A stretch of DNA of 64,000 nucleotides from a virus, in the IMG/VR virus record IMGVR_UViG_3300048997_000130, positions 96,001 through 160,000 of that record; one strand, written 5' to 3'. The notes below the pieces were generated by a model, which searched no databases, was not told the origin of the DNA, and worked only from the letters and a program-made list of their open reading frames with translations. Below, piece after piece: positions 208-63,703 of this stretch; positions within the stretch are counted from its first letter, which is position 1; each line of letters starts with the position of its first letter. Position numbers and translations under genes: made by a program.

Positions 208-435
208 TCATTCAGATTGAGTGAATTCAATGACGGTCAGATCAAAAATGTCTTGAAGTTCGTCCACGGAAATGTCTGCCGCAAGACAAGTGCGAATGAG
301 ATGTTGTAAAGACTGCCTGAGGGGAGGAGGACTTGGCGAACCAGAAATGTGATTGTTGACGCTGGATTTCAAATCCGTTAGCATTCGAACCATGTCCGAC
401 AATGATGGAGGAGCTGGCGGATTTCCTTGAGACAT
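208..435 (-). CDS. hypothetical protein with C-terminal tag (Q variant)
   Basis: ends DELQDIFDLTVIEFTQSE; C-terminal half resembles 436..738. Confidence 0.75.
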   Translation of the reverse strand: MSQGNPPAPPSLSDMVRMLTDLKSSVNNHISGSPSPPPLRQSLQHLIRTCLAADISVDELQDIFDLTVIEFTQSE

Positions 436-738
436 TTATTCTTCTTGCGTGACTTCGATGGCTTCCAGCCTGAAAATTTCTATGATGCGTTCAATGGGAA
501 CGTTGTTTTGGAAACAACGCCTGAGCGCCTGCCTTAAATCAACTTCCGGAGCGCTTTCTGCGGGAAATGATTTAATGTTTTCCAAATCATGAATGACGGT
601 GGATAAATCTTCGGTGTAGAACTTGGAGGGAAGATGACCGGGATTGGAAAATGTGCCGTTATGTGCATTCAAATCAACTGGCGATATGGATTGGTTGGAC
701 GTCGCCAGCAAACGGGCAATGTGTGATTTGATGTCCAT
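436..738 (-). CDS. hypothetical protein with C-terminal tag (Q variant)
   Basis: ends ERIIEIFRLEAIEVTQEE; abuts 208..435. Confidence 0.75.
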   Translation of the reverse strand: MDIKSHIARLLATSNQSISPVDLNAHNGTFSNPGHLPSKFYTEDLSTVIHDLENIKSFPAESAPEVDLRQALRRCFQNNVPIERIIEIFRLEAIEVTQEE

Positions 739-757
739 TTCACAAAATTATACAGAA

Positions 758-1117
758 TTACTCAACCACAGTCAAATGTTCTGGGAGATAAGAATATCGA
801 AGATTTTCAGGCTCCCAACGCACATCGACCTCTGGACCGATGTTTTCCAAGTTAAATCTGGACGTGCCAGGTTTATGATTGTTGAAATCAGTGAGTCCAA
901 GAACGACTCCTGTCGAATTTCCAAATTCGGCAACGTGCCTGGACGAACAAGCTAGACAATCGTCATCTAAGAACGGACCCGTATGTGCCTGAATGCAGTT
1001 CCCGATGAGCAAAGCTTTAAAGGAATCCGAAAGTCGAACCCGAGTGCCCTTTTCCATTTCTAAGTTTACATTTGGAACAAGAAATCCTAATGGCCTTATA
1101 TTGGACAGAGGACCCAA
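758..1117 (-). CDS. hypothetical protein
   Basis: ORF in co-oriented array; start may be MEKG. Confidence 0.6.
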   Translation of the reverse strand: MGPLSNIRPLGFLVPNVNLEMEKGTRVRLSDSFKALLIGNCIQAHTGPFLDDDCLACSSRHVAEFGNSTGVVLGLTDFNNHKPGTSRFNLENIGPEVDVRWEPENLRYSYLPEHLTVVE

Positions 1118-1164
1118 AGCCGCGGGGAAATTTAGATTCTTGTTCCAAAAAGGTTATTTAAAAA

Positions 1165-1554
1165 TTACGTTTTAAGGACGATGTTTCCCCATTTGGTGGT
1201 CTGAGGTCTTCTGTGGGCTCGCACCATAATGCCAGTTTTTACTGCGTCGGATGGAGGATCTTTACCACGGAAATGGCAAGCTTCTAGGAGAATCGGGAAA
1301 TAGAAAGTTTCGTTTCCCGATTCTATTCGAATCATATTACATTGATGTTTAGTGCTTTTAGCAATTTGGAGAATTCCTGAAAGGAGGTCCCAAAGATTGC
1401 GGCGAGTCCTGACGCCTCGTTGTTTCCATGATGTTAGAAGTAAATTCCATTGTTCTAGTGCATAACGAGCGAGAGATCGAGCTTCAGGTGAGGATGATGA
1501 AATGGATACGCGTTTCAACCATTCTGGAGCGGTTTCATGACCATTACGTGGCAT
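1165..1554 (-). CDS. hypothetical protein
   Basis: 129 aa ORF in co-oriented array. Confidence 0.6.
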   Translation of the reverse strand: MPRNGHETAPEWLKRVSISSSSPEARSLARYALEQWNLLLTSWKQRGVRTRRNLWDLLSGILQIAKSTKHQCNMIRIESGNETFYFPILLEACHFRGKDPPSDAVKTGIMVRAHRRPQTTKWGNIVLKT

Positions 1555-1611
1555 GAATTAAAAATACAATTGAACTCCTCTATGCAAAATTAATATACTC
1601 CAAAATCGAAC

Positions 1612-1866
1612 CTAATCATTTTGGAAAGGCCCCACCACGTACAACTCATTTCCGGAATTTTTTAAAGTAATATGCATCTTTTCCAGAAGGGCTCCGTCAC
1701 ATACAAAATATATTTTTGAAGTAATATATATTTTTCTTTTCGGGCCCCACCACGTACAACCCGGACTACCCATTTGAATAGGGGGACCCGCCCGGATTTC
1801 TCGTGCATCCGGTTCCCCTCCAAAAAGACTTCCCCCGGTGATTCCTATACTATCTATGTATGGCAT
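1612..1866 (-). CDS. hypothetical protein
   Basis: 84 aa ORF, locally AT-rich. Confidence 0.5.
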   Translation of the reverse strand: MPYIDSIGITGGSLFGGEPDAREIRAGPPIQMGSPGCTWWGPKRKIYITSKIYFVCDGALLEKMHITLKNSGNELYVVGPFQND

Positions 1867-3666: not shown

Positions 3667-3667
3667 C

Positions 3668-5596: not shown

Positions 5597-6076
5597 TCAG
5601 TTGTGTTGGATTTCGTAGACTTGGACAGCTTTTTGAAGAAATGGGATTTGTTTTAGCAACTGCTGGTCTCGGACCGAAATAAAAGGTTGCACGAGTTGTT
5701 CGAAAGAAACCCTATCCAAAAGTTCTTGCTCACTGAACGAGCCCGGGAACGCTACCCAGAAATCCATGAGAGCCGTCGTTTCCCATCGGGGAGTTCCTTT
5801 TTGAGCGGCCGGCTTCGGAGCCCCTTCCAGAAGCCGGGAGAGCACTTGGTCTTTCGACAACACTCCAGCTTTGGCAAATTCCACCAACCGCCGGAAGTCC
5901 GTGTCCGACATATTGGAATGAAAGAACGCCGACAGTACATCATCTTCAGAAATGTCCCAACGGACTAAAGCATCTCGATTGATCTTTTTCAACAAGAACT
6001 TGCTAAGGACGTTGGTATTCCGATTTTCCATATGACGCAAAAATTGGTCTTTGGAAAGATTTCCTGGAATCGCCAT
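5597..6076 (-). CDS. hypothetical protein with C-terminal tag (Q variant)
   Basis: start MAIPG after cassette 6084; ends QKAVQVYEIQHN. Confidence 0.75.
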   Translation of the reverse strand: MAIPGNLSKDQFLRHMENRNTNVLSKFLLKKINRDALVRWDISEDDVLSAFFHSNMSDTDFRRLVEFAKAGVLSKDQVLSRLLEGAPKPAAQKGTPRWETTALMDFWVAFPGSFSEQELLDRVSFEQLVQPFISVRDQQLLKQIPFLQKAVQVYEIQHN

Positions 6077-6120
6077 TCGGTTGGAATCTCCATCCCCTAC
6101 TATGGGTGGAGTCCGGGAAT

Positions 6121-6360
6121 TTACGAAGCTTGAGACTGATCGAACGCTCCAAGCGGGCAAATTTCGACCCAAACTTCCTGAACGGGGGTGTTAAGCCCCA
6201 AATTCGGATCTGCAGGAACCCAGACCTCGCCTTGCAGTTGGGCAGACACGAAGTTCCCATATGCGCCGGCTTCCTCGGCGGCCGCGACGAGTTCAGGCGA
6301 GGGCTTTCCCAAAACCCGGCACGTATCTACACTCATCACTCTTGGGAAATCTGAATTCAT
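6121..6360 (-). CDS. hypothetical protein
   Basis: stop inside GTAAAT. Confidence 0.65.
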   Translation of the reverse strand: MNSDFPRVMSVDTCRVLGKPSPELVAAAEEAGAYGNFVSAQLQGEVWVPADPNLGLNTPVQEVWVEICPLGAFDQSQAS

Positions 6361-10657: not shown

Positions 10658-10848
10658 CTTTCCTGCACTTGCTTGATTATTTCGATATTGCAATCCACGG
10701 AAATTCCGGCTTTCTTCGCGTAGCGGGTGATGTTCCGTTTGTGCGTGAACCCGGGCAGGTAAACGGGTCCGGCCCCACATTTGGAACAAACATATATTTT
10801 CATATCTCCAGCAAATGTTTTCCGTTCATATTTCCAAGTGTGATTCAT
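10654..10848 (-). CDS. small Zn-binding protein with C-terminal tag (Q variant)
   Basis: H..CSKC..C; ends DCNIEIIKQVQES. Confidence 0.8.
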   Translation of the reverse strand: MNHTWKYERKTFAGDMKIYVCSKCGAGPVYLPGFTHKRNITRYAKKAGISVDCNIEIIKQVQES

Positions 10849-11057
10849 TAGCTCTCTTGAATCTTCTTAATCATTTCCACTTTGCAATCCGAAGAAATGC
10901 CTTTTTTCTTCGCGTAACGGGTTATGTTCCGTTTATTTAAGGTTTTCATTATGTGAATTGGGCCGACTCCGCATCTAGAGCAAATGTAAGAGTGGATGAA
11001 AGAGTGGATGATTGAAAACTGATGTTTATTGGTTCGAAGCTTCCATTTATGATTCAT
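10848..11057 (-). CDS. small Zn-binding protein, tandem paralogue with tag
   Basis: shares KRNITRYAKK; ends DCKVEMIKKIQES. Confidence 0.8.
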   Translation of the reverse strand: MNHKWKLRTNKHQFSIIHSFIHSYICSRCGVGPIHIMKTLNKRNITRYAKKKGISSDCKVEMIKKIQES

Positions 11058-25038: not shown

Positions 25039-25039
25039 C

Positions 25040-25255
25040 TTATTTGATTGTAAAAGATTCCGGGTCTGATCTACTGGCCCGAATATTATCGTTCCTGTTG
25101 CAACCCGGACAAGGCTTTCGAGTCCAAAGTTGGAAAGCCCCGTCCACCATGACGGCTTTGGAATGCGATCGAAATGACTTTCCACAATGACATTCAATAC
25201 TGGATTCCGGAAATCCATCCAGGACTAACCAATTAATTTCCGTAGGGGATTCCAT
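25040..25255 (-). CDS. small Zn-ribbon protein
   Basis: CHCG...CPGC. Confidence 0.65.
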   Translation of the reverse strand: MESPTEINWLVLDGFPESSIECHCGKSFRSHSKAVMVDGAFQLWTRKPCPGCNRNDNIRASRSDPESFTIK

Positions 25256-48436: not shown

Positions 48437-48462
48437 GGCCCTTGGTGGAATCGGCAGACACG
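48437..48462 (+). pseudogene. 5' fragment of a tRNA-Leu-like gene
   Basis: GGCCCTTGGTGGAATCGGCAGACACG = acceptor 5' strand + D-arm; no 3' half follows. Confidence 0.6.
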
Positions 48463-48474
48463 ATAATAACTAAT

Positions 48475-49421: not shown

Positions 49422-49691
49422 ATGATATTTTTGAATTTTGGATATTTATTTGATACTGTGACAACGTCAAATAAATTATCGATCAATCCAACTGTTCATC
49501 AATCAGGACATACTGTCCTTGATGAGCGTAATGCAAATTGGTTTAAGCGACTCCCTGTCCACAAGAAAGTGGACTATTTTATCAAAAATGGGATGGGAAT
49601 TCGAGCTATCGCTAAAGAACTGCATCTGCCTAAGAAGACAGTTCGAGCTATTCTGCATAGTAACGTTCTGAAGGATGTCATGCAATCGTGA
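49422..49691 (+). CDS. HTH protein with C-terminal tag
   Basis: NGMGIRAIAKELHLPKKTVRAIL; ends VLKDVMQS. Confidence 0.75.
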   Translation: MIFLNFGYLFDTVTTSNKLSINPTVHQSGHTVLDERNANWFKRLPVHKKVDYFIKNGMGIRAIAKELHLPKKTVRAILHSNVLKDVMQS

Positions 49692-49811: not shown

Positions 49812-50015
49812 ATGGCAGCGGTCATGAACTGGCAAGAATCTAAATCTTGGTGGTCATTGTCGAACGACGATAAAAATCGACTTCGCTCTCGTATTCAAGA
49901 ACTTCGCCAAGAAGGTTTCATGGTTCGTTCAATCGCTAAATGGCTTGGAATCACTCGTTTAGTTGTTCGAGATTGTTTGCATGAAATTTTGACATCAGAA
50001 ATCATGGATTCTTAG
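49812..50015 (+). CDS. HTH protein with C-terminal tag
   Basis: EGFMVRSIAKWLGITRLVVRDCL; ends LTSEIMDS. Confidence 0.8.
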   Translation: MAAVMNWQESKSWWSLSNDDKNRLRSRIQELRQEGFMVRSIAKWLGITRLVVRDCLHEILTSEIMDS

Positions 50016-50468: not shown

Positions 50469-51059
50469 ATGTCTAATACTTCTCCATCCAGTCCGAAAGA
50501 GAAAACTCCGGAACAAGTCCGTCAGGAATTTCTGGAGATGATACATTTCAATATTCGATATTGGTCCAGCCATTCATTAGAGAAGTCCGTGGAGGATCGC
50601 TTAAAAGGTCTAGCTTTTTCAATACTAGTGGCTATAGATGGGAATCATGCAGGCCTCCCCGCATTTATTTTGGCCCCTAATCCCGATTCTACTGATAAAT
50701 CTCATCATATTAAGATGAATGAAGATTATTTTCCCGAACAAATCACTAATATCCGATGTAATATTTCAGGATCTCTCCAAGATGCACTTTATGGGATTCC
50801 GACTCCACAATTGATAGAACCAGACAGTAATCCTTATATCTGTATGGATTGCGGTCAAGATGGTTCTAGTGAGTTGGAATGTCTACATTGCCATAGTAAT
50901 CAAGTATTTAATAAATACGATAACGGATGGACTTGTAGGGTTTGTAAAAAGGAGTTATCGAGCAATTACCTATCCATCTGTTCCACAAAATGTCAAGAAG
51001 AATTTATTCAATTCGGAGAAGAGTGCTTTCCAAGTTTGCCTGTTAGCCACCCAAAGTGA
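50469..51059 (+). CDS. hypothetical protein with C-terminal Zn-binding region
   Basis: GLAFSILVAIDG..LPAF.LAP; CMDC/CLHC/CRVC. Confidence 0.7.
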   Translation: MSNTSPSSPKEKTPEQVRQEFLEMIHFNIRYWSSHSLEKSVEDRLKGLAFSILVAIDGNHAGLPAFILAPNPDSTDKSHHIKMNEDYFPEQITNIRCNISGSLQDALYGIPTPQLIEPDSNPYICMDCGQDGSSELECLHCHSNQVFNKYDNGWTCRVCKKELSSNYLSICSTKCQEEFIQFGEECFPSLPVSHPK

Positions 51060-51384
51060 ACTCGGACTCGAACTCACTGGAGTTCTGGATAGGAATCTTA
51101 TTCATAAGCTCGGTCCAATAGCCTTCTGCGCTAAAGGACTTTATAATTCCGGATGCACTCATTTAATCGATTGGACGCATATTCCTAATATCTGTCAAAA
51201 GCCCGTTGGTCCCATTTTATTATATATTGTCAGCCCAAAAATTCGACCAGGAACCGGATTCTTTGTCCAATCTTGTATTGATCATCATATGCAAGATGTC
51301 CAATTGACTGATCTTTGGTTCATTCGCAAACCAAATATTGAAGAACTCAATTCCTATTATATTCATACCATCATGGACATGTAG
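50860..51384 (+). CDS. hypothetical protein with C-terminal tag (start unresolved)
   Basis: ends NSYYIHTIMDM; only listed start overlaps the upstream gene by 200 nt. Confidence 0.6.
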   Translation: MVLVSWNVYIAIVIKYLINTITDGLVGFVKRSYRAITYPSVPQNVKKNLFNSEKSAFQVCLLATQSELGLELTGVLDRNLIHKLGPIAFCAKGLYNSGCTHLIDWTHIPNICQKPVGPILLYIVSPKIRPGTGFFVQSCIDHHMQDVQLTDLWFIRKPNIEELNSYYIHTIMDM

Positions 51385-51386: not shown

Positions 51387-51749
51387 ATGGTTTCCGATTT
51401 GATGATAACCAAAGAATCATGTGCTCTTAAATATTCAATTCGTCAACTCCAACAACAATTAAATTTAGAGCCTGATGGCGAACTCACAGCTTTATTGATT
51501 CCAGCTTTGAAACCTGGTTTATTTTTCCCTAAATATTTAAATTGTAATTTTGAACACAGTATAATATGGCGCTGTCAACGGCCAGCTTACGGTTTCGTTC
51601 TATTTCATGATATCAAACCGGAATCACGCATTGTTGTGACATGTTGCGAACAACATCCAATATCAATTGTTAAATTCGGTTGGAATTTCCGATTGTTGAC
51701 GAGTATTGAACGATCAGAATTAATTATTTTGCAAATCATGAATTCATAA
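51387..51749 (+). CDS. hypothetical protein with C-terminal tag
   Basis: ends ELIILQIMNS. Confidence 0.75.
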   Translation: MVSDLMITKESCALKYSIRQLQQQLNLEPDGELTALLIPALKPGLFFPKYLNCNFEHSIIWRCQRPAYGFVLFHDIKPESRIVVTCCEQHPISIVKFGWNFRLLTSIERSELIILQIMNS

Positions 51750-51796: not shown

Positions 51797-52351
51797 ATGT
51801 CTCCAAGAACTGGTATTATATTCTTGCTTGAGAATCTTCAAATTGCCTCCGAAATTGGCAGAGTTGCCGAACGTTTGGCCGGAGCTCGATTGTTACATGC
51901 TCAACTGAATATATATGAGCCTCTCATCGATGGTCCTGATAAATCTTTAAGGTTCAGTCATTTTTTCCATATTTCTGATGGACTAGATAATCAGTTCCTT
52001 ACTCAATCTTTGTTATTGAGTTTCCCGCAGTTATGTGATGTTGATCTGGTTCGCAATATTAGTGATACCAATCATATAAATACTCCCGGGAGTAAATCTG
52101 CATATTCCACTCTCATTGACTATGTTGACAATCAATTCCGGACGCAACTTAGAGAAACCAAAGCTCGATTGAATTTGGAATTCGAGAAGTTCCAAAAAAC
52201 TGATGCTTATAAACAGCAACGTATTCGGAAAGTCCAAGATTCCGCTCGTCAAGAACTCCAGAAATACTTGATACGATATGCGGAGCTCGATGATGAATTT
52301 ATCCGCAATACGATGGATACATTATTGATCCGAGATACAATGGAGCAATAG
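51797..52351 (+). CDS. family A paralogue with tag
   Basis: ends MDTLLIRDTMEQ. Confidence 0.85.
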   Translation: MSPRTGIIFLLENLQIASEIGRVAERLAGARLLHAQLNIYEPLIDGPDKSLRFSHFFHISDGLDNQFLTQSLLLSFPQLCDVDLVRNISDTNHINTPGSKSAYSTLIDYVDNQFRTQLRETKARLNLEFEKFQKTDAYKQQRIRKVQDSARQELQKYLIRYAELDDEFIRNTMDTLLIRDTMEQ

Positions 52352-52353: not shown

Positions 52354-52938
52354 ATGGGAACCTTATCTGATTTTGAACATTCAACTATCGCTCAAATAGT
52401 ATTTAAGACTCCGGAATTATCGATATTATTGAAAAAACTTCCGAATATTTTGAAGAAGATTCGCCTACTAGATATTACGTTAGATATTTCTAGAGAATTC
52501 AATTCTGATAATAATTCATTCTCATGTTCTATTAAGAGACGCCATTTATTATTGATTAATGGGAAAGAAATTATAAAATATAATATTTCCAATATCGGAT
52601 TTTCAGATACACAACTGGATGCCGACGTCAGGGCTATTATTAGATCAAATTCTCCAATATTCTATACAGAAATGGATTATCAACGAACTATCAATCATTT
52701 AGAAAATTTGATTAATTTGGAATTCCAAGAACATCGATTCCGGAGCCAGACGAGGATCTATCGATTAATTAAACAATTTGTAAATACTTCACAATTCCAA
52801 ACGTATCAAACAACAACCATTCGCAATGCAGCCACTCAAGACATATATTCAGTCTTGTCTGCTTATTCGCATTTGGGAGATGATTTCATAAAATCATCAA
52901 TCGATACTTTTTTGATTCGCCATACGATGGATATGTGA
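52354..52938 (+). CDS. family A paralogue with tag
   Basis: ends IDTFLIRHTMDM. Confidence 0.85.
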   Translation: MGTLSDFEHSTIAQIVFKTPELSILLKKLPNILKKIRLLDITLDISREFNSDNNSFSCSIKRRHLLLINGKEIIKYNISNIGFSDTQLDADVRAIIRSNSPIFYTEMDYQRTINHLENLINLEFQEHRFRSQTRIYRLIKQFVNTSQFQTYQTTTIRNAATQDIYSVLSAYSHLGDDFIKSSIDTFLIRHTMDM

Positions 52939-53502
52939 ATGGCTAAATCGTTCGATTTTGATAAAGGCGTTGCAGCCATTTACGCGTCTGATGAATTTGC
53001 AACGATATCTAAGGGACTGGAATCCAGTATTAAATCTCTCAGATTTTCCGATGTCCGATTTGATGTATTCATACAGGAAAATAAATCTAAGTTAAAGATC
53101 AATGTAATATTTCTAATCCATGCAGGTGAATGCTCTGTTATAGCTCACCGCAATTTTAAGATCCGATGCAGACAAATCATCGGGCCTTTGAACTTATTAT
53201 TGCAATTTGGCCAAATCCTTGAACCATATTGTCAAAATATTCAAATTGATATTGTGAATCAATTCTTGGATACAATGGATATTCGATTTGAAAGCATCAT
53301 TGAAGAAGCCAGTATACGACTCCGGAATCAATTTTGTGAATATTTGGAAAAACCCTATTTTAAGCAAAAGAGAACAGAAGCTGTTGTAAGTTATGCTAAA
53401 CAAGAAATGGATAAATTATTATCTATATTTTCTAATTTGGATTTTGAAACTTTGCAGTCTATATTTAATGAATCAATGGTTCGTAATATAATGGAACAAT
53501 AA
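52939..53502 (+). CDS. family A paralogue with tag
   Basis: ends FNESMVRNIMEQ. Confidence 0.85.
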   Translation: MAKSFDFDKGVAAIYASDEFATISKGLESSIKSLRFSDVRFDVFIQENKSKLKINVIFLIHAGECSVIAHRNFKIRCRQIIGPLNLLLQFGQILEPYCQNIQIDIVNQFLDTMDIRFESIIEEASIRLRNQFCEYLEKPYFKQKRTEAVVSYAKQEMDKLLSIFSNLDFETLQSIFNESMVRNIMEQ

Positions 53503-53503: not shown

Positions 53504-54118
53504 ATGAATGATCCTGTGATCAATAAAATGATAAGAAAAATTTGTTCTTATCCAGTTATTACAACAGTAATTAATAATCATAAAGACATTATTATTAATT
53601 CAAAAATTATTGAATTCCAGTGCGAATCTGAACTCGGCATGACGCCCAGCAAATCGTTTGTCATTGCTACTACGTTATACGCGATTGTTCAAATTTCTGA
53701 GCAGAATTATCTCATGGCATCTGAGACTATAGAATTACTCTTGGATTGGCATCCGTTTAAGGTTCAAGATATTATGCAATCGTTAGTCAATGAAGTTATC
53801 ATTAAATGCGTTGAAGCGATAACTATCCAGTTCGATAGAATACTGACTGAGTCTGAATTATCATATGTTAAACTCCATATCTATGACTTCATTAATACTA
53901 CCAATTCCGAAGTTCTTAAGCAAAAATTTGATATGTTCAAAACCCAAACCAATGATTTCATAAAATCGGCTGCATTTGAACAACTACGTCGTAAGTCCAC
54001 TATTAAAATTTTTGAATCATGTCTGCATGGATTCATGGGCGCATTTGAAAGCATTGATGATAACGTGATGCGCGCGGCTTTCAATTCATACTTTGTTCAT
54101 ACTATTATGGAATCCTGA
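53504..54118 (+). CDS. family A paralogue with tag
   Basis: ends FNSYFVHTIMES. Confidence 0.85.
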   Translation: MNDPVINKMIRKICSYPVITTVINNHKDIIINSKIIEFQCESELGMTPSKSFVIATTLYAIVQISEQNYLMASETIELLLDWHPFKVQDIMQSLVNEVIIKCVEAITIQFDRILTESELSYVKLHIYDFINTTNSEVLKQKFDMFKTQTNDFIKSAAFEQLRRKSTIKIFESCLHGFMGAFESIDDNVMRAAFNSYFVHTIMES

Positions 54119-54793
54119 ATGCCATCGGCTATATCTCATAGAGACCCAGTCTATCATTATTTAGATATAGCCAATTTATTATATGAAACTGATACTATTC
54201 AACATTTAGTCAATTCATATATATCATATTTATCAAAATTAGAAGTTTGGGGGTTCACTATCGATTTTAATATTGTATTGCGCAAGGGTTATGCTATGTT
54301 GTCGCCAAAAGTCCTAATGAATATTGGTCAATCTTGCAGTTCTGGGATTCTTGTTTATGATATGTATTCAGGAGCTTCTTTGCATACAATATTAAACTGT
54401 TCCAGTTTATCAATTATCTCGGACAAAATCTTACGTGGTGTTGTTACTAAATATGCAATAACTAAATATTCTGGTCAGGAATTAGAATTATTTATAACTC
54501 AATTTATGGCATATCAAGGTAACATTCAATTTTCCGGAGGATTCCCACAATTTGTGACTACTAAAATCAATAATAATACTTCTTCGTTATTGAATGACAC
54601 AGTCGTTCGATTATATGGAAAAATCGATGTTATCAAGAATAGTGCAGAATATAAAAAGCGCTACAACGAAGCTTTAGAAGAATCTGCTGAATATGATATT
54701 GGTCGATTACTAAATCTATATAAAGATGTTAAAAATTCAGTGCGACAAGAGATCCTTTCTAAATTCATTGTTACTTCAGTGATGACTGAGTAA
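54119..54793 (+). CDS. family A paralogue with tag
   Basis: ends LSKFIVTSVMTE. Confidence 0.85.
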   Translation: MPSAISHRDPVYHYLDIANLLYETDTIQHLVNSYISYLSKLEVWGFTIDFNIVLRKGYAMLSPKVLMNIGQSCSSGILVYDMYSGASLHTILNCSSLSIISDKILRGVVTKYAITKYSGQELELFITQFMAYQGNIQFSGGFPQFVTTKINNNTSSLLNDTVVRLYGKIDVIKNSAEYKKRYNEALEESAEYDIGRLLNLYKDVKNSVRQEILSKFIVTSVMTE

Positions 54794-54825: not shown

Positions 54826-55500
54826 ATGGCATCCAGTTATCTCAGGATTTACGAACGATTATATATGACTCCTAAATGTCAAAATATTATCGAAAATTTC
54901 CAATCGGCATTATCTTCGGCTAGAGTTTGTGACTACAAATTCAATGTTCGTATTGATAGCAATGATGATCTCATCATTTCGCCGTCATTTAAAGTATCCG
55001 TTAGTCCATTCTTTGATAATTTCTCTGAACCACCAAATCGCAGACATTCTAATAATGACCATTTTTTCTCAATTGCTAGTCATTCTTACAATTTCATTTC
55101 ACGAGATATTTTAGATAATATTGTTGATTATTATTGGTCCAATCCGAAAGGTTATTGGTCCAATCCGGGAAGCATTCCCACTTATGGATGCGATAAAGAC
55201 GTCGTTAAAAAAGGTCGGAGTTTTACGGGGAAACGTAATGTTGATTCTTTCATAACATATTTTCGAGAGCGTGTTGATGCAGAAACTAAAGAACTCCGGA
55301 CTGAAGCCATAAATCGAACGTCCATTCAAATGGACGCCATGATATTGGATCCACAATTTGCTATTAAACGAGATGAAACAGTTGTGCATCATGCTCAAGC
55401 TGAAATTCGGAAAGTCTTGTCTATTTATAAACATCTTGGTGACGACGTACTCCGGACTGCTATTTCCAGTTTTGTAATTGGTTCAGTTATGGACGAATGA
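54826..55500 (+). CDS. family A paralogue with tag
   Basis: ends ISSFVIGSVMDE. Confidence 0.85.
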   Translation: MASSYLRIYERLYMTPKCQNIIENFQSALSSARVCDYKFNVRIDSNDDLIISPSFKVSVSPFFDNFSEPPNRRHSNNDHFFSIASHSYNFISRDILDNIVDYYWSNPKGYWSNPGSIPTYGCDKDVVKKGRSFTGKRNVDSFITYFRERVDAETKELRTEAINRTSIQMDAMILDPQFAIKRDETVVHHAQAEIRKVLSIYKHLGDDVLRTAISSFVIGSVMDE

Positions 55501-55916
55501 TGTTGAACCAGACTTTAATCCTTAATTATATACGTCGATCAGTAGATAATCTGATTATTTCGGAACCTGCTACTGATATGTTTGTGTTAATTAAATTACA
55601 AGATAATAATGTGTTGTATCTTCAACAGTTAGGGCCGATTGAAGATAATGAACATGAATATTGGATATTGGAGCTTCGAAATCAATATAATGGAGTTTTG
55701 GAAGCTATTCGATTTAGTAAAGAAGTCCCATATGCTAGGATTATTAATAGTAGCTTTCATACAGACTGGGTTATGAAAGTCTATGAACATTTCACATTTG
55801 CAATCACGCATTTATTGTCAACAACCATTGATTCGCTTCATGCAGCCGGTCTGAATATTGAAGAAATAAATGACGAAGTTCGACATGTTGTGGTTTCAAC
55901 AGTTATGAATAAGTGA
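55497..55916 (+). CDS. hypothetical protein with tag
   Basis: ends VRHVVVSTVMNK. Confidence 0.8.
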   Translation: MMLNQTLILNYIRRSVDNLIISEPATDMFVLIKLQDNNVLYLQQLGPIEDNEHEYWILELRNQYNGVLEAIRFSKEVPYARIINSSFHTDWVMKVYEHFTFAITHLLSTTIDSLHAAGLNIEEINDEVRHVVVSTVMNK

Positions 55917-56116
55917 TGCGTGCTAGTTATAAATTCGGAGTGCGCTGGATAGCAGAAAATGATGAACCCATCGCTCAAACTCCTGAAGACGCAGTCGGTT
56001 TAATATCTATCTTGCTTTTAGCTGATCTGTTTGGGAAAACGCCAGAGATAGTTGCTCGGGATGTTTTTGATTATAAGAACAAGATGCTGGTGATACGAGA
56101 CGTTATGGAGTCGTAA
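55913..56116 (+). CDS. small hypothetical protein with tag
   Basis: WIAENDEP..LLADLFGK; ends MLVIRDVMES. Confidence 0.8.
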   Translation: MMRASYKFGVRWIAENDEPIAQTPEDAVGLISILLLADLFGKTPEIVARDVFDYKNKMLVIRDVMES

Positions 56117-56148: not shown

Positions 56149-56343
56149 ATGAGTGATAGATTATTGTGCGGTGTTGGACTCGGATTATTTTCTGTGGCAT
56201 TGTTTTTATATTTCATAATCTTGCCACAAACCTCGCCAGCTAAACGTCTCGGGCTGCATCGAGAAGTCATGTTGATGATTCTCCTTGGAGTAGCCTTCAT
56301 AGCTTCTACTTTAATTAGCTGGTGTGTTCGGAATCCAATATGA
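56149..56343 (+). CDS. membrane protein (2 TM)
   Basis: two hydrophobic helices. Confidence 0.65.
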   Translation: MSDRLLCGVGLGLFSVALFLYFIILPQTSPAKRLGLHREVMLMILLGVAFIASTLISWCVRNPI

Positions 56344-56663
56344 AACTGGTGGATTTGGAACCACAATTCTTGAAGGTTATTGATGCGGATTCTCATTGTT
56401 ACGTAGATACGATTCTAGAAGCTCAAGGTTTATTGTTTTTGTGTCCATTATGTTTTATTAATAATAATGGTCCGATTGGAACACATTCAATATTGACTTG
56501 GTTCCGTGATAGAGGCGTTCCAGACGATCAAATTCCCATCCCTGGCCGATGGATAATGTCTGGTTCCGATTATTCCAATTTGAATTTATATCCTTCCATC
56601 CAACTCACGCTTGGATGTAAATGGCACGGCAATATAATCAACGGTAATATTCAGATATTATGA
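56340..56663 (+). CDS. DUF6527-like Cys/His protein
   Basis: LFLCPLC..H..RW..PSIQ..CKWHG.I.NG pattern recognised from memory. Confidence 0.5.
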   Translation: MKLVDLEPQFLKVIDADSHCYVDTILEAQGLLFLCPLCFINNNGPIGTHSILTWFRDRGVPDDQIPIPGRWIMSGSDYSNLNLYPSIQLTLGCKWHGNIINGNIQIL

Positions 56664-57061
56664 CATCTAAAGCTAATATATGTTATAGTATACACACTAT
56701 TATCAAGGAATTGATTCATAATATAGAAAGCCATGATATTATCTTATATAAATTCCCGTATAATGTATGTATTAAATTTAGCATGAATTATACATCAAAT
56801 ATGCAAATCAAAATTTGGTCCTTAAGTTGGTCTCGTAATAATGTATTCCAATCCAACATTTGGATTGTAGATTCTACCAGATTACCAGAAAATGTCCAAT
56901 TATTTAATGCATTTTTAAATGAAATTGTTGATCAATTCATATTAGATATGGAATCGATTATTGATAATGCTATCGATAATCTTGCACTATTAAATTTAGA
57001 CGTATCATGTTTACATACAATGATTGATAAAGTTATTGTTAATAAAGTAATGATTACATAA
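56660..57061 (+). CDS. hypothetical protein with tag
   Basis: ends IDKVIVNKVMIT. Confidence 0.8.
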   Translation: MTSKANICYSIHTIIKELIHNIESHDIILYKFPYNVCIKFSMNYTSNMQIKIWSLSWSRNNVFQSNIWIVDSTRLPENVQLFNAFLNEIVDQFILDMESIIDNAIDNLALLNLDVSCLHTMIDKVIVNKVMIT

Positions 57062-57066: not shown

Positions 57067-57630
57067 GTGTTGTATATTATTGGAAGAATGAGTATATCAA
57101 AATTAACTGCAGAGTTGAAGGCAATACCATTATCTTCTACTATTGATGAATCAATATTTAATCAAATTATCCATGAATGCCGCATTATAACGAAAATCCG
57201 ATATCATTCATATAATGCAGTTTTAACCCCAGAATTAATCCCGATAATACGAGTTAGATATCGGACTCAACTTTTACATCGGCGTGTGCAGCGTTTTTTT
57301 ATTGCTGGACAACCCATAATTGATCAAATATTATATTCTTTTGAATTGCCGATTCGAACAGCTTTTAAATCGAAAATCGAATTATTCCTTGCTGAATATA
57401 TTGCAAAAATTGAATCTGACGTTCGACAATCTATAATTAAATCCGGTCAAGATGAAAAGTTCCAAGATAAAATCAGATTTAGGCGTTTAGAACGTTATCA
57501 TAAAATCCAATCGGAACAACAAGAAACATTATATACAGAAATTAAACGTGCTTTTGATATTGGAATCACTCGCGATGCTATCGTTACTATCATAGATACT
57601 GTATGTTGCCAAATTACTCATGACGAGTGA
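57067..57630 (+). CDS. hypothetical protein with tag (H variant)
   Basis: ends IDTVCCQITHDE. Confidence 0.75.
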   Translation: MLYIIGRMSISKLTAELKAIPLSSTIDESIFNQIIHECRIITKIRYHSYNAVLTPELIPIIRVRYRTQLLHRRVQRFFIAGQPIIDQILYSFELPIRTAFKSKIELFLAEYIAKIESDVRQSIIKSGQDEKFQDKIRFRRLERYHKIQSEQQETLYTEIKRAFDIGITRDAIVTIIDTVCCQITHDE

Positions 57631-57700: not shown

Positions 57701-58120
57701 ATGAATTTTGAATTTAAAATTCGGCAGAAAGTCATTGAATCCCTATCGATCCTACTTGAGAGACATGAACAAAATCCAATTTCCTCGCATATCGCTCCGA
57801 TTGTGTTATTTAATTTCCGTGATATATCGAACATAATTCTATATATTAATCTGAAACATACTGCACATACTAATAGTTTAAGATTTGGATGCGAAATCAA
57901 GCGTGAATTCGATATGGTGACCATGTCAATTCCGAAACCGATTTCATTAAATTGTATTGGTGTACAAGAATTTGTTGATGAAGTGGTCTCTAGATCATCA
58001 TATCATTTAGATAAAGACATCAGAGATTTGATGAATGGTTTCTCTGGATTAGGAATCGGAGCACATGAACTTCATCAACATATGTTGGAATTAATTGCTG
58101 CTGATATAATGGAATCATGA
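57701..58120 (+). CDS. hypothetical protein with tag
   Basis: ends LELIAADIMES; paralogue of 58121. Confidence 0.8.
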   Translation: MNFEFKIRQKVIESLSILLERHEQNPISSHIAPIVLFNFRDISNIILYINLKHTAHTNSLRFGCEIKREFDMVTMSIPKPISLNCIGVQEFVDEVVSRSSYHLDKDIRDLMNGFSGLGIGAHELHQHMLELIAADIMES

Positions 58121-58534
58121 ATGTTTGAATCTAATATTCGGCCGCATGTTGAGAAAGCTGTCCGTTGTTTACTTGATAGATTTGATTCCAATCATTTGGA
58201 TTATGATAAAATAAAATTATTGCGAATTCACAATGAATCATGGGTGACTGTTTCCATCAAAGCCGAAATCCATCCTATTTATAAAGTAGCTTTTAGACTA
58301 TATGGTCACTTTTGGAGACCCAATAGGACGATAGAGACTTCGATATTCCATTATCCAGTATTAGATAATCATTCAATGGAGACGTTCATTGAACAAATAA
58401 TTGACGCGATTTCAGATAGAATCCAAACGCATTTATTAGAATTTATTCAAGCTTGTTCCACGGTTGGTGTTGAAAAACAATATCTTAACCAATATTTATT
58501 GGATCATATTGCTCAAGAAATAATGGAGTCATGA
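58121..58534 (+). CDS. hypothetical protein with tag
   Basis: ends LDHIAQEIMES. Confidence 0.8.
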   Translation: MFESNIRPHVEKAVRCLLDRFDSNHLDYDKIKLLRIHNESWVTVSIKAEIHPIYKVAFRLYGHFWRPNRTIETSIFHYPVLDNHSMETFIEQIIDAISDRIQTHLLEFIQACSTVGVEKQYLNQYLLDHIAQEIMES

Positions 58535-58794
58535 AGGTTCAATTCGAAAACCTCCGATATTTTCTGAAGTGGTATTGGGGGCTAGATTTGCGTCGTGCAG
58601 ATTCCGAATCTGAAACTTCCAGATTCACGGGAATTTATAAAACGGGTTTTATAGTAAGCGGTCCTCGTCCTGGATTTAAATGGAGCAAAGATCGAAGATA
58701 TCGATCTCTTTTAGAAATTGCTAGAATATTTGAATATGATAAATATCGTAGTGATTCGTTGGAACGTTTGGCTGCAGGAGTCATGAATACTTGA
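58531..58794 (+). CDS. hypothetical protein with tag
   Basis: ends LERLAAGVMNT. Confidence 0.75.
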   Translation: MKVQFENLRYFLKWYWGLDLRRADSESETSRFTGIYKTGFIVSGPRPGFKWSKDRRYRSLLEIARIFEYDKYRSDSLERLAAGVMNT

Positions 58795-58842: not shown

Positions 58843-60087
58843 ATGGACGTACAAAGCCGACATCGACAAGAAGACGGGACCTGGAAAATTCCGGACCATT
58901 CGTTGCCAGAGCTCATGCAGCGAGTCGAGAAGCTCAATAAGAGGACCAAGAAGACTAGCGGGAACGGACTTTCACTCGAGAAAGTCGGAGAATGCACGGA
59001 AGAGATTCAAGACGAAGAGAAGGCATTTCCTGACGTCAGGAAATATGTTTTTATCAAAATTTCCGGCGAAATCCCTGTCATTAATGGTCATGCGTTTATT
59101 GCTCGCATTGAACATCATGTTACCGGCAATATCATATCGAAATCCCCACGATTTTTTGATTTCCCGTTGGCCGAGGAATTTCGAACCTGCACTGCAAATT
59201 GCGAACACTGTAATACGCTTCGGCAACGTAAAGACACCTTTATTTTGCGAACCGAAGACGGGACTTTGAAGAAAATCGGCCGGAACTGTCTTGCTGATTT
59301 TCTTCGTGGTTCGAACGTCCAAGACGTGCTCCAGTTGTGGTCTTTGATAGATTCTATTGAGAAGCTTCTGGACGCAGCAGAATCGGATTTGGAAGGCAGT
59401 TCTAGTGGTGGAGGACGGTCTTACGTTCGTTTGTCGAATTATTTGGCTTGTACGGCTTCTGCTGTTCGGAACTTTGGATGGGTGAGTCGCGCAAAAGCTG
59501 AAGAATTTCAGAAACAAGCTACTGCTACGGTGGCAGATTGGCTATGCGGCAAAGCTCCTAAATCGCCTCGAGAATACGAAGAATGGAAGAGTTGCCAACC
59601 CACGGCAGTAGATTTGGCAACGGCCAAATCGGTCATGGATTGGGTTGAGACTTTTTCCGGAAAATCAGATTTGAGTGAATATTTCTGGAATATGAAAGCC
59701 GCTTTTGATTTGGGTTATGTTAGCGCTCGCAATTCTGGACTTATTGCGAGCGCAGTCATTTCCTATCTTAAAGAAATGGAGCTTTTGCAAAAGAAACAAG
59801 CTCGTGCTGACGTTCCGGATGGCGGCCATTTTGGCATTCCGGAGAAGCGTTATGATTTTACTAATTTGACTGTGCTCACTGTTCGTAATTATGAGAACGA
59901 TTACGGCACTGTTACCATGCTTATCATGTCAGATGCTGAAAATCATCAGTTTAAATGGAACGCCAGCGGTTCCAAAGATTTCAAAGCCGGCCAGACGGTA
60001 TCAGGTAAAGGCACTGTTAAGAAGCATGATATGTACGAAGGTCGCCATGTAACGATTTTGACTCGTTGTAATTTGACTATCTCCTAA
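58843..60087 (+). CDS. phage-type protein with Zn-binding motif and probable C-terminal OB fold
   Basis: CEHC..R..IGRNCLADF; C-terminal beta-rich GTVKKHDMYEG..T.LTRC. Confidence 0.6.
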   Translation: MDVQSRHRQEDGTWKIPDHSLPELMQRVEKLNKRTKKTSGNGLSLEKVGECTEEIQDEEKAFPDVRKYVFIKISGEIPVINGHAFIARIEHHVTGNIISKSPRFFDFPLAEEFRTCTANCEHCNTLRQRKDTFILRTEDGTLKKIGRNCLADFLRGSNVQDVLQLWSLIDSIEKLLDAAESDLEGSSSGGGRSYVRLSNYLACTASAVRNFGWVSRAKAEEFQKQATATVADWLCGKAPKSPREYEEWKSCQPTAVDLATAKSVMDWVETFSGKSDLSEYFWNMKAAFDLGYVSARNSGLIASAVISYLKEMELLQKKQARADVPDGGHFGIPEKRYDFTNLTVLTVRNYENDYGTVTMLIMSDAENHQFKWNASGSKDFKAGQTVSGKGTVKKHDMYEGRHVTILTRCNLTIS

Positions 60088-60146
60088 ATAATATAATTTC
60101 TTTAGAACTTGATACTGATTTTTTATTATAAAATGGCAGATATAAA

Positions 60147-61163
60147 ATGAAGCTCAATGGGATCCATGCATTCGAATTTAATTATTTGAAAGATGAATAC
60201 CCATTATCACAAGAATGGAGGGATATTCAAGCCTTTGAACATTCTGTGACTGTATGTGATGTTAACATCGTGCTATTTGGAATGTCAGCCACACATAAAT
60301 CCGGAAAAGAAATATCTGCTAGTTCCATTCATGATTTCGAACATATTGCTAGTGGTGGACTAGCTGCAGCATATTTTGAACTGTTGGAAAGGACGGCTCT
60401 TATAGAAGCTTCTTCCGTTCCCCATTTCCCGATTATTAATTATCTTGGCGAAGAATTCGGGCAAATCGATTATACGAGAGTGTTTCCCGGATCACCAGAT
60501 CCACGCTGGAAATATTCATTATCGAATGGCATATCGGCCAATATTGGAAGAGAAGCTGCATGTAAATCAGCCAATTTTGAATTAATTGAACGCGATTTAA
60601 TTTTGAGATCTTGGTATGATAATTTGAAATCTATTAAAGTTTCTAACTGGGTCGAGTTCCCAACATCTTTCAATGATAATTATGACATCCAATCTTATTC
60701 ATTTTCGAATTCTGATCAAGATTGTTCTGTTGTTGGTATATTCGGTTTCCCGAAAATCCATATTCCATTAATCTATGGATTTGGAGCTCGAGCTACTATT
60801 GATGAAGCTATTGCTGTGGCAAAGCGCGAATGCATTCAAAGACTTGGATTTTTGTGGGGCGAATCTATACCTTCGCAAGCTCCGACTTTAAAATGCACTG
60901 CAGAATTCCATCAAGCATTTTATTTATATCCGCCGCATCATATTAAACTTCGGAACTGGTTAGATAATGATCTTGGTCGGATGATGCATGTTCCTACCTG
61001 TAAAATCGAAAATCGACAATTCATCGATTTGACTCCTGATCATTTGAAGCACAAAATGTACGTTGTGAAAGCACTTCTAAAAAGTGAAATCCCTTTAACA
61101 TTTGGACTTCCAAGATCATGCAATCGGATTTATCCGGACAGAACAATTCATCCAATAGCGTAG
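60147..61163 (+). CDS. YcaO-family ATP-dependent amide-modifying enzyme
   Basis: AYFELLER, SNGISA..ELIERD, GFGA..AKRECIQR, C-terminal HPIA. Confidence 0.85.
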   Translation: MKLNGIHAFEFNYLKDEYPLSQEWRDIQAFEHSVTVCDVNIVLFGMSATHKSGKEISASSIHDFEHIASGGLAAAYFELLERTALIEASSVPHFPIINYLGEEFGQIDYTRVFPGSPDPRWKYSLSNGISANIGREAACKSANFELIERDLILRSWYDNLKSIKVSNWVEFPTSFNDNYDIQSYSFSNSDQDCSVVGIFGFPKIHIPLIYGFGARATIDEAIAVAKRECIQRLGFLWGESIPSQAPTLKCTAEFHQAFYLYPPHHIKLRNWLDNDLGRMMHVPTCKIENRQFIDLTPDHLKHKMYVVKALLKSEIPLTFGLPRSCNRIYPDRTIHPIA

Positions 61164-61438
61164 CTCAATACTGGACTACGCGTTCCGGAGAGAAGATACT
61201 CGTTGAAGAAATGACCGATTCGCATATAAATAACGCTGTCCAATATTTGATTAGACAACTAACTGACTGGGATAGGCAAACTGGGATCGATCTTGGCAAC
61301 ATTGACTCCGAAGCCGGCCCGTCTGTAAATCTTCCGATTTTGTATTTTCCGCAAGTTGAATTGGTGGCTGAAGCGTTAACTAATTTAGAAATGCTTCAAA
61401 AAGAACAAAATAGAAGATCTCGTCAAAATTTCTATTGA
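61118..61438 (+). CDS. hypothetical protein
   Basis: WTTRSG..I.EMTDSHI.NA motif; start uncertain. Confidence 0.65.
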   Translation: MQSDLSGQNNSSNSVAQYWTTRSGEKILVEEMTDSHINNAVQYLIRQLTDWDRQTGIDLGNIDSEAGPSVNLPILYFPQVELVAEALTNLEMLQKEQNRRSRQNFY

Positions 61439-61448
61439 CGAGATAAAT

Positions 61449-62876
61449 ATGGCTAAGCGTTGCATTTGGATACCACTCGGTATTGCATTCTGGATTACTA
61501 ATATCGCACAGGCTCAACAGCCGACTCCGCCGGCTTCTTGTGCTCCAGCTATTGCAGCAGCCACGTCTTGTACGTTAAGTTCGCAGTGTCCTACTGGACA
61601 AATTTGCACACTTGACTATAATCAACAGATAAAACATGCTTGGACGTCTGGGCATTGTTTAGATCCAAGCGGCAAAGTTAACGCGCAACCGGCTGTCCAA
61701 GCCGATTTATGTACTTTGCCCATTCCTTATAACTTTTCCGCCGGAGTCTTATATAATTTGCCTGGACAATCTCGAATTCGAATCGAAAGTCCAGGGCTCA
61801 TTATTTATAGACACACTATATTGGCAGGTAACGGTGCACTTTTAGTATTGCCAAATCAAGCGCCATGGTTTACAGCTCTCCGTGTGGTGGTACCACTCGA
61901 TGGTGAATTTATATATGAAATTAACGGGAAGCATGCCAGTTTTAGTGCAGTAGAAGATCTTGCTATAACTCCTGATGCCAATATTCTTCCCAATCCGTTA
62001 TCTGTTCCCAACCAGCATATTGGACTCCAAGTGGCAGCTCACGGAGTGCGTTTATTCAATATTCAAATTCACAGACTTGGAAAATGCATTGAAGTTTATG
62101 GCGAAGGTGGTCATGCCAATAGTAATGCCACTCAAAGCTATTCCACTTTGATGAATAACTGTTGGGGATACGGCGAACGGATCCGAGGAGGCGATTCTAA
62201 TGGAGGCGTGTTCATTGGAGAAGAACTCATTGGTGGAGTCGGATTGCGCGATAGTGCATTCTTAGGAAATCTCCATCTTGGGCCGATGGTTCAAGGCAAT
62301 GATAAAGTCTCCAATAGTTCAGAAGAGGGGCCGACTCCGAAGAAATATTCATTGGATTTTTCCAGTGGGAATTATTCTACAATAGTTCATCCATATATTG
62401 AACTTTCAGAAGCAAAACCTTTAGGAACGTGGACTAATTTGATTGCTGGAGGCCAAGCTGTTGCGCGTTGGGAACTTGGAGAACGCGTTGGGGGTCAGTA
62501 TTCTCGTTTAGTGTTCAGGAACCAAACCAGTGATCGTCGTTACAAATTCATTCTTGGACGAGAAACCGAACCTATGTTTTGGCAAGCTTACACACCTGAT
62601 AACATTGCTGCAGAACCATATGGTCACAGACTAGAATATCGACCTGAATTTGATGCTTGGCAAATTGGAAGTGAAGCTTTCGTTCCAGCAGGTTTGGGTT
62701 CAGATAGATATGTGCTCCGTTTCCGGACTTCAAAAATTATACTCAATGCTGGGATTTTCTCACCTGGTCCGAAATTAACGCCGCTTTCTGAAAGCGGTTT
62801 ATCAATGTGTACTGATGGAATTGATAATGACGGTGATACTAAAATTGATGCGTTAGATCCTGGATGTTCCCCATAA
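61449..62876 (+). CDS. secreted Cys-rich protein with C-terminal Ca/metal-binding-like motif
   Basis: signal peptide ending AQA; Cys-rich N-domain; ends CTDGIDNDGDTKIDALDPGC. Confidence 0.75.
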   Translation: MAKRCIWIPLGIAFWITNIAQAQQPTPPASCAPAIAAATSCTLSSQCPTGQICTLDYNQQIKHAWTSGHCLDPSGKVNAQPAVQADLCTLPIPYNFSAGVLYNLPGQSRIRIESPGLIIYRHTILAGNGALLVLPNQAPWFTALRVVVPLDGEFIYEINGKHASFSAVEDLAITPDANILPNPLSVPNQHIGLQVAAHGVRLFNIQIHRLGKCIEVYGEGGHANSNATQSYSTLMNNCWGYGERIRGGDSNGGVFIGEELIGGVGLRDSAFLGNLHLGPMVQGNDKVSNSSEEGPTPKKYSLDFSSGNYSTIVHPYIELSEAKPLGTWTNLIAGGQAVARWELGERVGGQYSRLVFRNQTSDRRYKFILGRETEPMFWQAYTPDNIAAEPYGHRLEYRPEFDAWQIGSEAFVPAGLGSDRYVLRFRTSKIILNAGIFSPGPKLTPLSESGLSMCTDGIDNDGDTKIDALDPGCSP

Positions 62877-62908
62877 CGCCTTAGACTTATCGTTGATATT
62901 GTTTAAAT

Positions 62909-63172
62909 GTGATACATAATCCAGTTGTTCCAATTGAATATGTAAGGACTGAACTCGGCGAAGAAGCCATGTTAGAAATAATTTCTATATTCGATACTGA
63001 GCAAATTGAATTTACACGGTCTCCCAGCCGAGTTTTAGCGTCTGAATACAGCCATTCTACTATCGAACAAAATACTCCATCTCGAACATTTGTTGCAGTC
63101 TCATTCGATCGACGATATATCTATCAATATGATATAGATGGTTATGGTGAATGGCGCGAATGTGCTAGATGA
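62909..63172 (+). CDS. hypothetical protein
   Basis: 87 aa ORF. Confidence 0.6.
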   Translation: MIHNPVVPIEYVRTELGEEAMLEIISIFDTEQIEFTRSPSRVLASEYSHSTIEQNTPSRTFVAVSFDRRYIYQYDIDGYGEWRECAR

Positions 63173-63208
63173 TTATTTTGGTTGGATTCTGATTGCCAAT
63201 TTCCATGA

Positions 63209-63703
63209 TTGGCTTCTCGAATTGAATCTTCGGTATTCACATCATGTAGATATGAATATTATTTTTATAGAAATATTATGAATTTGACTGGAAATTATGA
63301 AACTATAACAATTGATGATTCGTCTTGGTCTCTTCGATGTAGTTGGTATAAAGAATCTCATCATTGGTCGGTATGTATACGGATTTGTTTGAACAGTAAA
63401 CCTGTGGAAGAACTTGTATATTATGTGATTCCTGGTGGGAATTGGTCTGTGAGCGATTCAAGAATGGTTCCCAATAAACTAAATTCTATGCAAATTGCTA
63501 ATTTGATTGAGAAACGCTTGATTTCCAGTATGGCGCCATTGCCGCGCCCTATTGATATCGCCGAGTTCATGGATCGAGTACACAAACTCGCGCTGGTGGA
63601 AATGTTTCGGCAATTCGCAAAAGAATGGACAGGCGATATTGCAGTGGAAGATATTGCTTGTATTTGGGCCGAAGAACAATATCGCGGAGTTATGGAATCG
63701 TAG
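63209..63703 (+). CDS. hypothetical protein with tag
   Basis: ends WAEEQYRGVMES. Confidence 0.8.
   Translation: MASRIESSVFTSCRYEYYFYRNIMNLTGNYETITIDDSSWSLRCSWYKESHHWSVCIRICLNSKPVEELVYYVIPGGNWSVSDSRMVPNKLNSMQIANLIEKRLISSMAPLPRPIDIAEFMDRVHKLALVEMFRQFAKEWTGDIAVEDIACIWAEEQYRGVMES

Follow-up and report, generated by a model that had tools for sequence, protein, structure and literature searches.

A candidate C-terminal docking tag at a fixed distance from the stop codon on many small proteins of a huge-phage clade

Why do dozens of otherwise unlike proteins of one virus end in nearly the same residues, always at the same distance from the stop codon? The question is raised by a stretch of 64,000 nucleotides (hereafter the window) that comprises bases 96001-160000 of the 196,676-bp IMG/VR record IMGVR_UViG_3300048997_000130 (G000). 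The original prediction had listed 30 open reading frames (ORFs) in it with methionine third from the stop, plus eight more variants, and had read their common tail as modular and recognized by one partner. Here we describe this tail, called the tag below, as a motif of fixed position that is under selection at the protein level, sits on mostly unrelated carriers and is conserved across phages, and we weigh the possibility that it is a docking motif. Coordinates are window positions unless given as genome or locus (L) coordinates. CheckV places the completeness of G000 at ~44%, so the full phage genome is probably larger than 400 kb.

A motif with a constant distance to the stop codon

Genes were called greedily and without overlap over the whole of G000, yielding 315 ORFs. 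All 30 starts listed in the original prediction translate to proteins ending in [V/I/T]-M-x-x-stop, the listed 42980 being the lower bound of an ORF on the minus strand (42980-43516) that ends in TMEE. With residues numbered back from the stop (the last being -1), V, I or T followed by Met was present at -4/-3 in 45 of the 315 called genes, where a per-site frequency of 0.0045 predicts 1.4 (binomial P = 6e-52); at each of the other offsets from 2 to 15 the same pair occurred only 0 to 3 times. Among 2128 stop-to-stop frames of at least 40 codons the motif was found in 58, and subtraction of the ~50 that lie in real genes leaves ~8, near chance. Addition of five real ORFs missed by the greedy call and of credible Gln variants brings the carriers to 54, or 17% of genes, and these are concentrated in arrays of co-directional genes at genome 127-180 kb and 195-197 kb; a few more lie at 80-107 kb. 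The eight additional variants fared unevenly: the ends TQSE, TQEE, IQES, VLSS and THDE were accepted, IQHN is possible, and IQIL (56322-56663) is doubtful as a tag. VLKT (1165-1554, minus strand) was rejected because its homologue in a second phage, G002 (described below), keeps a different conserved end.

A position profile was built on the 29 tagged proteins that belong to neither family A nor family B, two sets of paralogues considered separately. Ser occupied -1 in 19 of the 29, with E, D or N at -2, Met at -3 and I or V at -4; -7 was hydrophobic in 93% and -8 in 79%, Glu stood at -10 in 12 of 29, and conservation weakened past about -12. The conserved positions (-3, -4, -7, -8 and -10/-11) follow a helical spacing. 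AlphaFold2 models of family B and family A proteins (predicted local distance difference test, pLDDT, 69.7 and 67.6, respectively) both end in a long helix, a loop and an 18-residue helix reaching the penultimate residue.

Selection on the tail acts on the protein, as three observations indicate. In G000, the Val, Ile and Ser codons of the tail use all synonymous forms; the Gln variants are encoded by CAA and keep no base of ATG; and a 69-amino-acid protein (10848-11057, minus strand) ends in IQES, while its G002 homologue (40% identical) ends in VMES at the same aligned position. These codon data largely refute a nucleic-acid signal at gene ends, whether a ribosome-binding site for the next gene, a promoter or a recombination site, and we regard such a signal as scarcely credible. 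It could draw on the fact that M-E or M-D yields ATGGA, which contains GGA, and that E/D at -2 is somewhat commoner where the next gene is adjacent (17/24 versus 9/21). However, third codon positions of the tail vary freely, a third of the tags have no E/D at -2, and no more than roughly one large gene in three has GGA upstream. G000 makes weak use of Shine-Dalgarno sequences. A promoter motif, CGTAAA-N15-TGTAAAAT, was set aside: it occurs once in the genome, so it has no link to the tagged arrays.

Carrier bodies and other huge phages

A modular tag with one reader predicts that the tail is kept in other huge phages on different bodies, and this is what was found. A degenerate DNA pattern for R-D-[VI]-M-E-S-stop, searched in IMG/VR, matched nine stretches, four of them within two phages that were fetched whole and analyzed by the same procedure as G000: G002 (436,316 bp, 50% guanine plus cytosine [GC], 623 ORFs) and G003 (362,524 bp, 57% GC, 426 ORFs), both complete with terminal repeats. 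A further phage, G001 (273,770 bp, 66% GC), was reached via its clamp loader. In G002, 104 of 623 ORFs end in [VIT][MQH]xx, compared to 5-14 at other offsets, and the tail follows a stricter consensus (E-x-[IL]-V-x-E-V-M-E-S), 89 of the 104 having Ser as the last residue. G003 has 37 tagged ORFs among 426, with M, H or Q at -3. The Met form is absent from G001, which had been taken as a tag-free control; it was dropped from this role once His was allowed at -3, as ~9 ends of the form V-D-x-V-H-D-L-stop were then found (loci L010-L023; examples at 75035+, 140470-, 163484+, 215768+, 236140+ and 237636+). With His for Met at -3 and Leu for Ser at -1, this end is a lineage variant of the tag; His at -3 is common in both G003 and G001. 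The phages bearing the tag span 38-66% GC; G000, the 38% GC lineage, has the tag in Met and Gln forms and on two large families of paralogues.

The proteins that G000 has in common with these phages (84 with G002 at a median identity of 46%, 55 with G003 and 32 with G001) form a syntenic core, ~52 of them being common to G000, G002 and G003; one core protein, at L003:5279-6037 on the minus strand (genome 45276-46037), carries two sigma-70 region-4 domains and is 62-65% identical in all four. Just 3 tagged G000 proteins have a G002 homologue, and all three homologues are tagged, one pair with Q in place of M. Likewise, of the 104 tagged proteins in G002 only ~4 have a homologue in any other of these genomes, and a convincing Pfam domain was found in 0 of 102. 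From genome to genome the bodies are thus almost entirely different, whereas the tail persists, as does its exact distance to the stop. The tag can also degenerate or be gained on a conserved body: a 240-amino-acid protein pair that is 68% identical (G002_159484p and G003_40225p, in the L060 and L036 regions) ends in EVMES in G002 and in KTLEG in G003.

Within G000, the 54 tagged proteins fall into ~42 phmmer sequence groups once the last 14 residues are cut off. They include helix-turn-helix (HTH)-like proteins of 67-89 amino acids, Cys-rich proteins and membrane proteins with up to three predicted transmembrane (TM) segments. Carriers with one to three such segments are encoded at genome 177424 and 177771, and G002 has four TM carriers. 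In the membrane carriers the tail comes after basic residues past the last TM segment, which places the tag in the cytoplasm and argues against capsid loading. Encapsulins and microcompartments do load diverse cargo through a common terminal amphipathic helix, and the huge capsids of these phages offer room for cargo. Still, a capsid-loading or ejection signal, like encapsulin cargo peptides or the T4 capsid-targeting sequence, seems very unlikely to us, given multi-pass membrane carriers in both G000 and G002 and 54-104 carriers per genome that lie in accessory arrays, outside the structural block. The packaging or ejection role offered as one option by the original prediction is disfavored by the same multi-pass membrane proteins.

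Families A (10 members) and B (9 members) bear on whether the carriers are related by descent. The full profile of each family matches its own members alone. When the two profiles were aligned with hhalign, the alignment covered the last 48 columns only, flush with the C-terminus (P = 3.4e-4), and the N-terminal parts did not align; the 48-column module is a helix-loop-helix. The exact stop position is retained among A/B members at 15-25% identity. Judged by this alignment, part of the spread of the tag is ordinary duplication and divergence, not grafting. The idea of a tail held at a fixed position on differing bodies, and with it that of a modular tail read by one partner, keeps its footing in the ~42 groups, the protein-level constraint, the lock to the C-terminus and the persistence in other phages, but has to be qualified for A and B, whose homologous module means that the tail was partly inherited.

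Could the same hold for every carrier? All could descend from one ancient protein, the C-terminal helix being an ordinary structural element that packs on the preceding helix, with no shared reader. Beyond the end-to-end alignment of two true paralogue sets, this is suggested by the long helix, loop and 18-residue helix that close both models, and by an acidic-residue turn ~15-19 residues before the end in many singletons. We nevertheless consider it unlikely. A profile of the A+B module without its last 8 residues matched none of the other tagged proteins, and in the 29 other carriers conservation fades past about -12. Moreover, the carriers range from three-TM membrane proteins to 67-amino-acid HTH-like and Cys-rich proteins, and the stop position is exact both at 15-25% identity and across phages with otherwise unshared tagged bodies. 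A single homologous family with an ordinary conserved C-terminus, which would have undone the original prediction, is hence found for A and B between themselves only and not for the whole set. Wider searches returned little for these bodies: the family A profile matched the phage's own proteins alone among 5.8 billion proteins, Foldseek found no match to the family B model in the PDB at E <= 0.001, tblastn of four tagged proteins found none in 50,697 phage records, and megablast with 20 kb of the window found none.

A proposed docking function, its candidate readers and the gene arrays

We lean toward the tail being a docking motif held in position at the C-terminus and recognized by a single cytoplasmic partner common to the carriers. 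Such a motif would be short, would act at the protein level and would be locked to the free C-terminus. It would comprise the last two turns of an amphipathic helix, with hydrophobic residues at -8/-7, V/I at -4, M (or Q, H, L) at -3, E/D at -2, usually S at -1, and then the carboxylate. A single partner, phage- or host-encoded, would grip the hydrophobic face and the acidic end, and dozens of unlike proteins would thereby be treated as one class, recruitment to a hub or controlled turnover being the likeliest results. The tail would mark a large, quickly replaced set of small accessory proteins in a huge-phage clade, in which new carriers might arise mainly by duplication and divergence of tagged genes with the tail alone kept, as families A and B illustrate. 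That the -3 and -1 residues differ by lineage suggests co-evolution with the reader. A broader proposal, which we hold more tentatively and as plausible rather than probable, is that of an undescribed address-tag system: one conserved receptor, belonging to the phage core or to the host, would hold on to the free end of the C-terminal helix in 50-100 accessory proteins per genome that are unrelated in other respects, and handle them as one class (e.g., for timed removal or recruitment to a takeover hub), while co-evolving with the -3/-1 residues (M..S, Q/H..S, H..L).

Several results, in addition to the shared descent of families A and B, weigh against a docking motif with a dedicated reader. 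Reader candidates were sought among phage-encoded families, and none was identified in the phages searched; ClpP, Lon_C, S41 and trypsin-like proteases were found in none of them, and TPR gave no match above the cut-off. PDZ_6 had no match in the complete genomes of G002 and G003, though both are tag-rich. A tail profile (52 tails, 32 positions) searched against 1.84 billion representatives gave one match, internal to a 933-amino-acid low-complexity protein, in a search where a profile of 32 positions cannot reach significance. Finally, a co-directional next gene starts within 10 nucleotides of 47% of tagged genes in G000, compared to 23% of untagged genes (36% versus 25% in G002), which leaves room for a role during translation.

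This last observation is central to a reading in which the motif acts on the ribosome, the end of the nascent chain modulating termination or re-initiation and the ribosome or a release factor serving as reader. Termination-arrest peptides such as TnaC are likewise characterized by their constant distance to the stop, the weak Shine-Dalgarno use in G000 would fit, and a universal reader would explain both the failure to find a phage-encoded one and the persistence of the tag from 38 to 66% GC. We judge this reading improbable, since more than half of the tagged genes have no adjacent downstream gene, their stop-codon usage equals the genome average, and the conserved positions fit an amphipathic helix spanning 10-12 residues; variation of -3/-1 by lineage (M..S versus H..L) would also be odd for a universal ribosomal reader. 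Tandem in-frame stops are equally frequent after tagged and untagged genes.

To return to the proposed docking motif, one protein of the window resembles a reader of C-termini. A stand-alone PDZ protein of 142 amino acids (24790-25218, minus strand), with no protease domain, exceeds the Pfam cut-offs for PDZ_6 (38.3 bits; cut-off 27), PDZ (27.3; 23.2) and PDZ_2 (27.5; 27). Its nearest models and structures are the PDZ domains of DegS, HtrA and site-2 proteases, and it is the sole PDZ protein in the G000 record. PDZ domains bind free C-termini, and this genuine one might read the tag locally in G000, as HtrA/DegS-type PDZ domains read C-terminal peptides. It cannot be the general reader, because PDZ_6 is missing from G002 (104 tagged ORFs) and G003 (37) and the last tag residue is not hydrophobic. 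Even a local role appears highly doubtful: a search of 5.8 billion proteins returned the protein itself alone, and the last residue of the tag is Ser, preceded by an acidic one, whereas known HtrA-type ligands end in a hydrophobic residue.

Two further sets of genes stand among the tagged ones. A divergent P-loop/AAA+ protein of 397 amino acids with the sequence GSAGIGKT and weak AAA_3 and IstB matches is encoded at L006:4777-5970 on the plus strand (genome 164777-165970). With G002_25877p, likewise encoded among tagged genes, it shares 55% identity, and it has no G003 homologue; its conservation is far above that of its neighbors. A four-gene cluster within the tagged block (58843-62876, plus strand) encodes a 414-amino-acid protein, a divergent YcaO-like protein (60147-61163; YcaO 33 bits, SagD-type 41 bits), a 106-amino-acid ORF and a 475-amino-acid Cys-rich protein with a match to an acidic double-disulfide repeat. 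As a general modifier of the tag this cluster was rejected, there being no homologue in G001-G003. Proteins present in G000, G002 and G003 but not in G001 were likewise tried as a pointer to the reader and set aside; the 35 proteins are mostly structural and replication core.

A reader, once found, would matter in several ways. Genes of huge phages are mostly small orphans that give no functional clue, and a tag on 9-17% of them offers one experimental handle. Finding the single reader would give hundreds of proteins in a phage clade a common fate or location, and would turn the 12-residue tail into a portable tag whose partner is defined. By its presence the tag also distinguishes real genes among the orphan ORFs and marks their ends.

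The tagged ORFs of the window, given here with their last four residues, lie on the plus strand except where noted. Family A genes at 31699-32340 (VMSS), 32377-32955 (VMHE), 32952-33545 (IMHS) and 33553-34113 (VMET; alternative start 33430) precede family B genes at 34178-34693 (VMDG), 34801-35307 (IMDG) and 35311-35799 (VMDG). The minus-strand ORF ending in TMEE, mentioned above, is a singleton. It is followed by a gene with Cys motifs at 44755-45399 (IMGT), whose G002 homologue (47% identity) ends in VMDC, and by five family B genes: the Leu variant at 45396-45917 (VLSS), 45918-46448 (VMKQ), 46473-46961 (VMAI), 46961-47446 (IMDE; modeled as a beta domain followed by helices, the last at residues 143-160) and 47447-47989 (VMES). 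A LAGLIDADG homing-endonuclease-like ORF (48442-49182, plus strand) breaks the array at this point. Beyond it lie two HTH-like genes, 49422-49691 (VMQS; HTH matches under the Pfam cut-off) and 49812-50015 (67 amino acids, IMDS), and the paralogues 50860-51384 (IMDM) and 51387-51749 (IMNS). Six family A genes follow at 51797-52351 (TMEQ), 52354-52938 (TMDM), 52939-53502 (IMEQ), 53504-54118 (IMES), 54119-54793 (VMTE) and 54826-55500 (VMDE; last modeled helix at residues 206-223). The array continues with a singleton at 55497-55916 (VMNK), a 67-amino-acid protein at 55913-56116 (VMES), another singleton at 56660-57061 (VMIT), a probable His variant at 57067-57630 (THDE), two genes ending in IMES at 57701-58120 and 58121-58534, and one at 58531-58794 (VMNT). 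The YcaO-like cluster comes next, and a last tagged gene is found at 63209-63703 (VMES).

The Gln variants are all encoded on the minus strand near the start of the window. In addition to IQES, described above, they are TQSE at 208-435 and TQEE at 436-738, with the uncertain IQHN at 5597-6172 as a possible fourth. They lie, as does the PDZ gene, in a region of ~30 kb (window 1-31000) where GC is ~50%, compared to ~38% in the rest of G000, and where only short ORFs are found, mostly on the minus strand. Stop-codon recoding was tried as a cause of this ORF-poor, GC-rich first 31 kb and rejected, as no reassignment gave a clear gain or long frames. In G000, PHROG matches include terminase, a portal-like protein, a RecD-like helicase, ribonucleotide reductase and a clamp loader, several of them with intein-like insertions. 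Four genes are overlong, all on the minus strand: those for the portal-like protein (L002:7791-12206), terminase (L002:13105-16707), RecD-like helicase (L003:15750-19277) and ribonucleotide reductase (L004:4112-8212). Because phrog_9666 matches are common to the last three, these are suggested to contain inteins.

Comparison with known systems

A short terminal motif on unlike proteins read by one hub is a known kind of arrangement; this tag matches none of the systems compared below in sequence, scale (9-17% of ORFs) or identified reader. Full-text literature searches gave no published description of it, in agreement with the original prediction, which knew of no matching system. The clamp-binding motif, the SspB XB tail and the ssrA/ClpX degrons resemble the tag in being short peptides at or near the C-terminus of unrelated proteins, with one reader and a position relative to the free end that matters. 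Their sequences (LAA, LRVVK, QL[SD]LF) have no resemblance to hydrophobic-x-x-[VI]-M-E-S; in place of the non-polar last residues (LAA-like) or the basic C-motif 2 of ssrA/ClpX substrates, tagged tails end in [ED]-S. Furthermore, the clamp, SspB and ClpX motifs mark a handful of proteins, whereas the tag marks 9-17% of the proteome in phages without ClpP or Lon.

The ligands of PDZ domains (outer-membrane-protein YxF ends for DegS, and those of Tsp/Prc) are also recognized by the free C-terminus, and G000 encodes a PDZ protein. They end in a hydrophobic residue and are bound as a strand, whereas the models show the tag as a helix and its last two residues are E/D-S; instead of a hydrophobic P0, Ser is at -1 in most carriers outside families A and B and in G002, and PDZ_6 and the tag do not co-occur across genomes. 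Encapsulin and microcompartment peptides and the T4 capsid-targeting sequence likewise use a terminal amphipathic peptide on diverse proteins as an address, but they act on soluble cargo and keep no exact distance to the end, while the tag is found on membrane carriers too. In TnaC-like termination-arrest peptides, as in the tag, conserved residues keep a set distance to the stop.

With regard to fixed distance from the carboxyl end, the closest formal parallel is the FxSxx-COOH class, small and fast-diverging proteins of vWA-MoxR peptide-processing systems that carry a motif at such a distance (Kaur, Burroughs, Iyer and Aravind 2020, PMC7159879, where Haft and Basu 2011 is cited on FxSxx-COOH). 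Tag carriers are similarly small and fast-diverging, and their conserved motif keeps a constant spacing to the COOH end, but instead of an FxSxx, RxD or acidic-run motif they have hydrophobic-x-x-[VI]-[MQH]-[ED]-S. In the vWA-MoxR systems a single precursor goes with a neighboring zincin metallopeptidase and often a radical-SAM/SPASM enzyme, whereas 54-104 carriers of the tag occur per genome. VWA_2 was not found in the G000 or G001 fragments; G002 has a 41-bit match at 333 kb, far from its main tagged arrays, and G003 a weak one of 20 bits. The vWA protein of G002 and G003 is not beside the tagged arrays. The only MoxR-like match in G000, a record ~44% complete, is a 15-bit AAA_3-like one, in the AAA+ protein at genome 164777-165970.

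Among viruses, the closest parallel in logic is the ankyrin/PRANC (F-box-like) proteins of poxviruses. Their handle is a folded unit of ~30-40 residues that binds eukaryotic Skp1, and their bodies are homologous ankyrin repeats, whereas the tag takes ~12 residues on unrelated bodies. What the two appear to share is a large viral gene set with fast turnover, in which a constant C-terminal handle docks on one hub and the rest of the protein varies.

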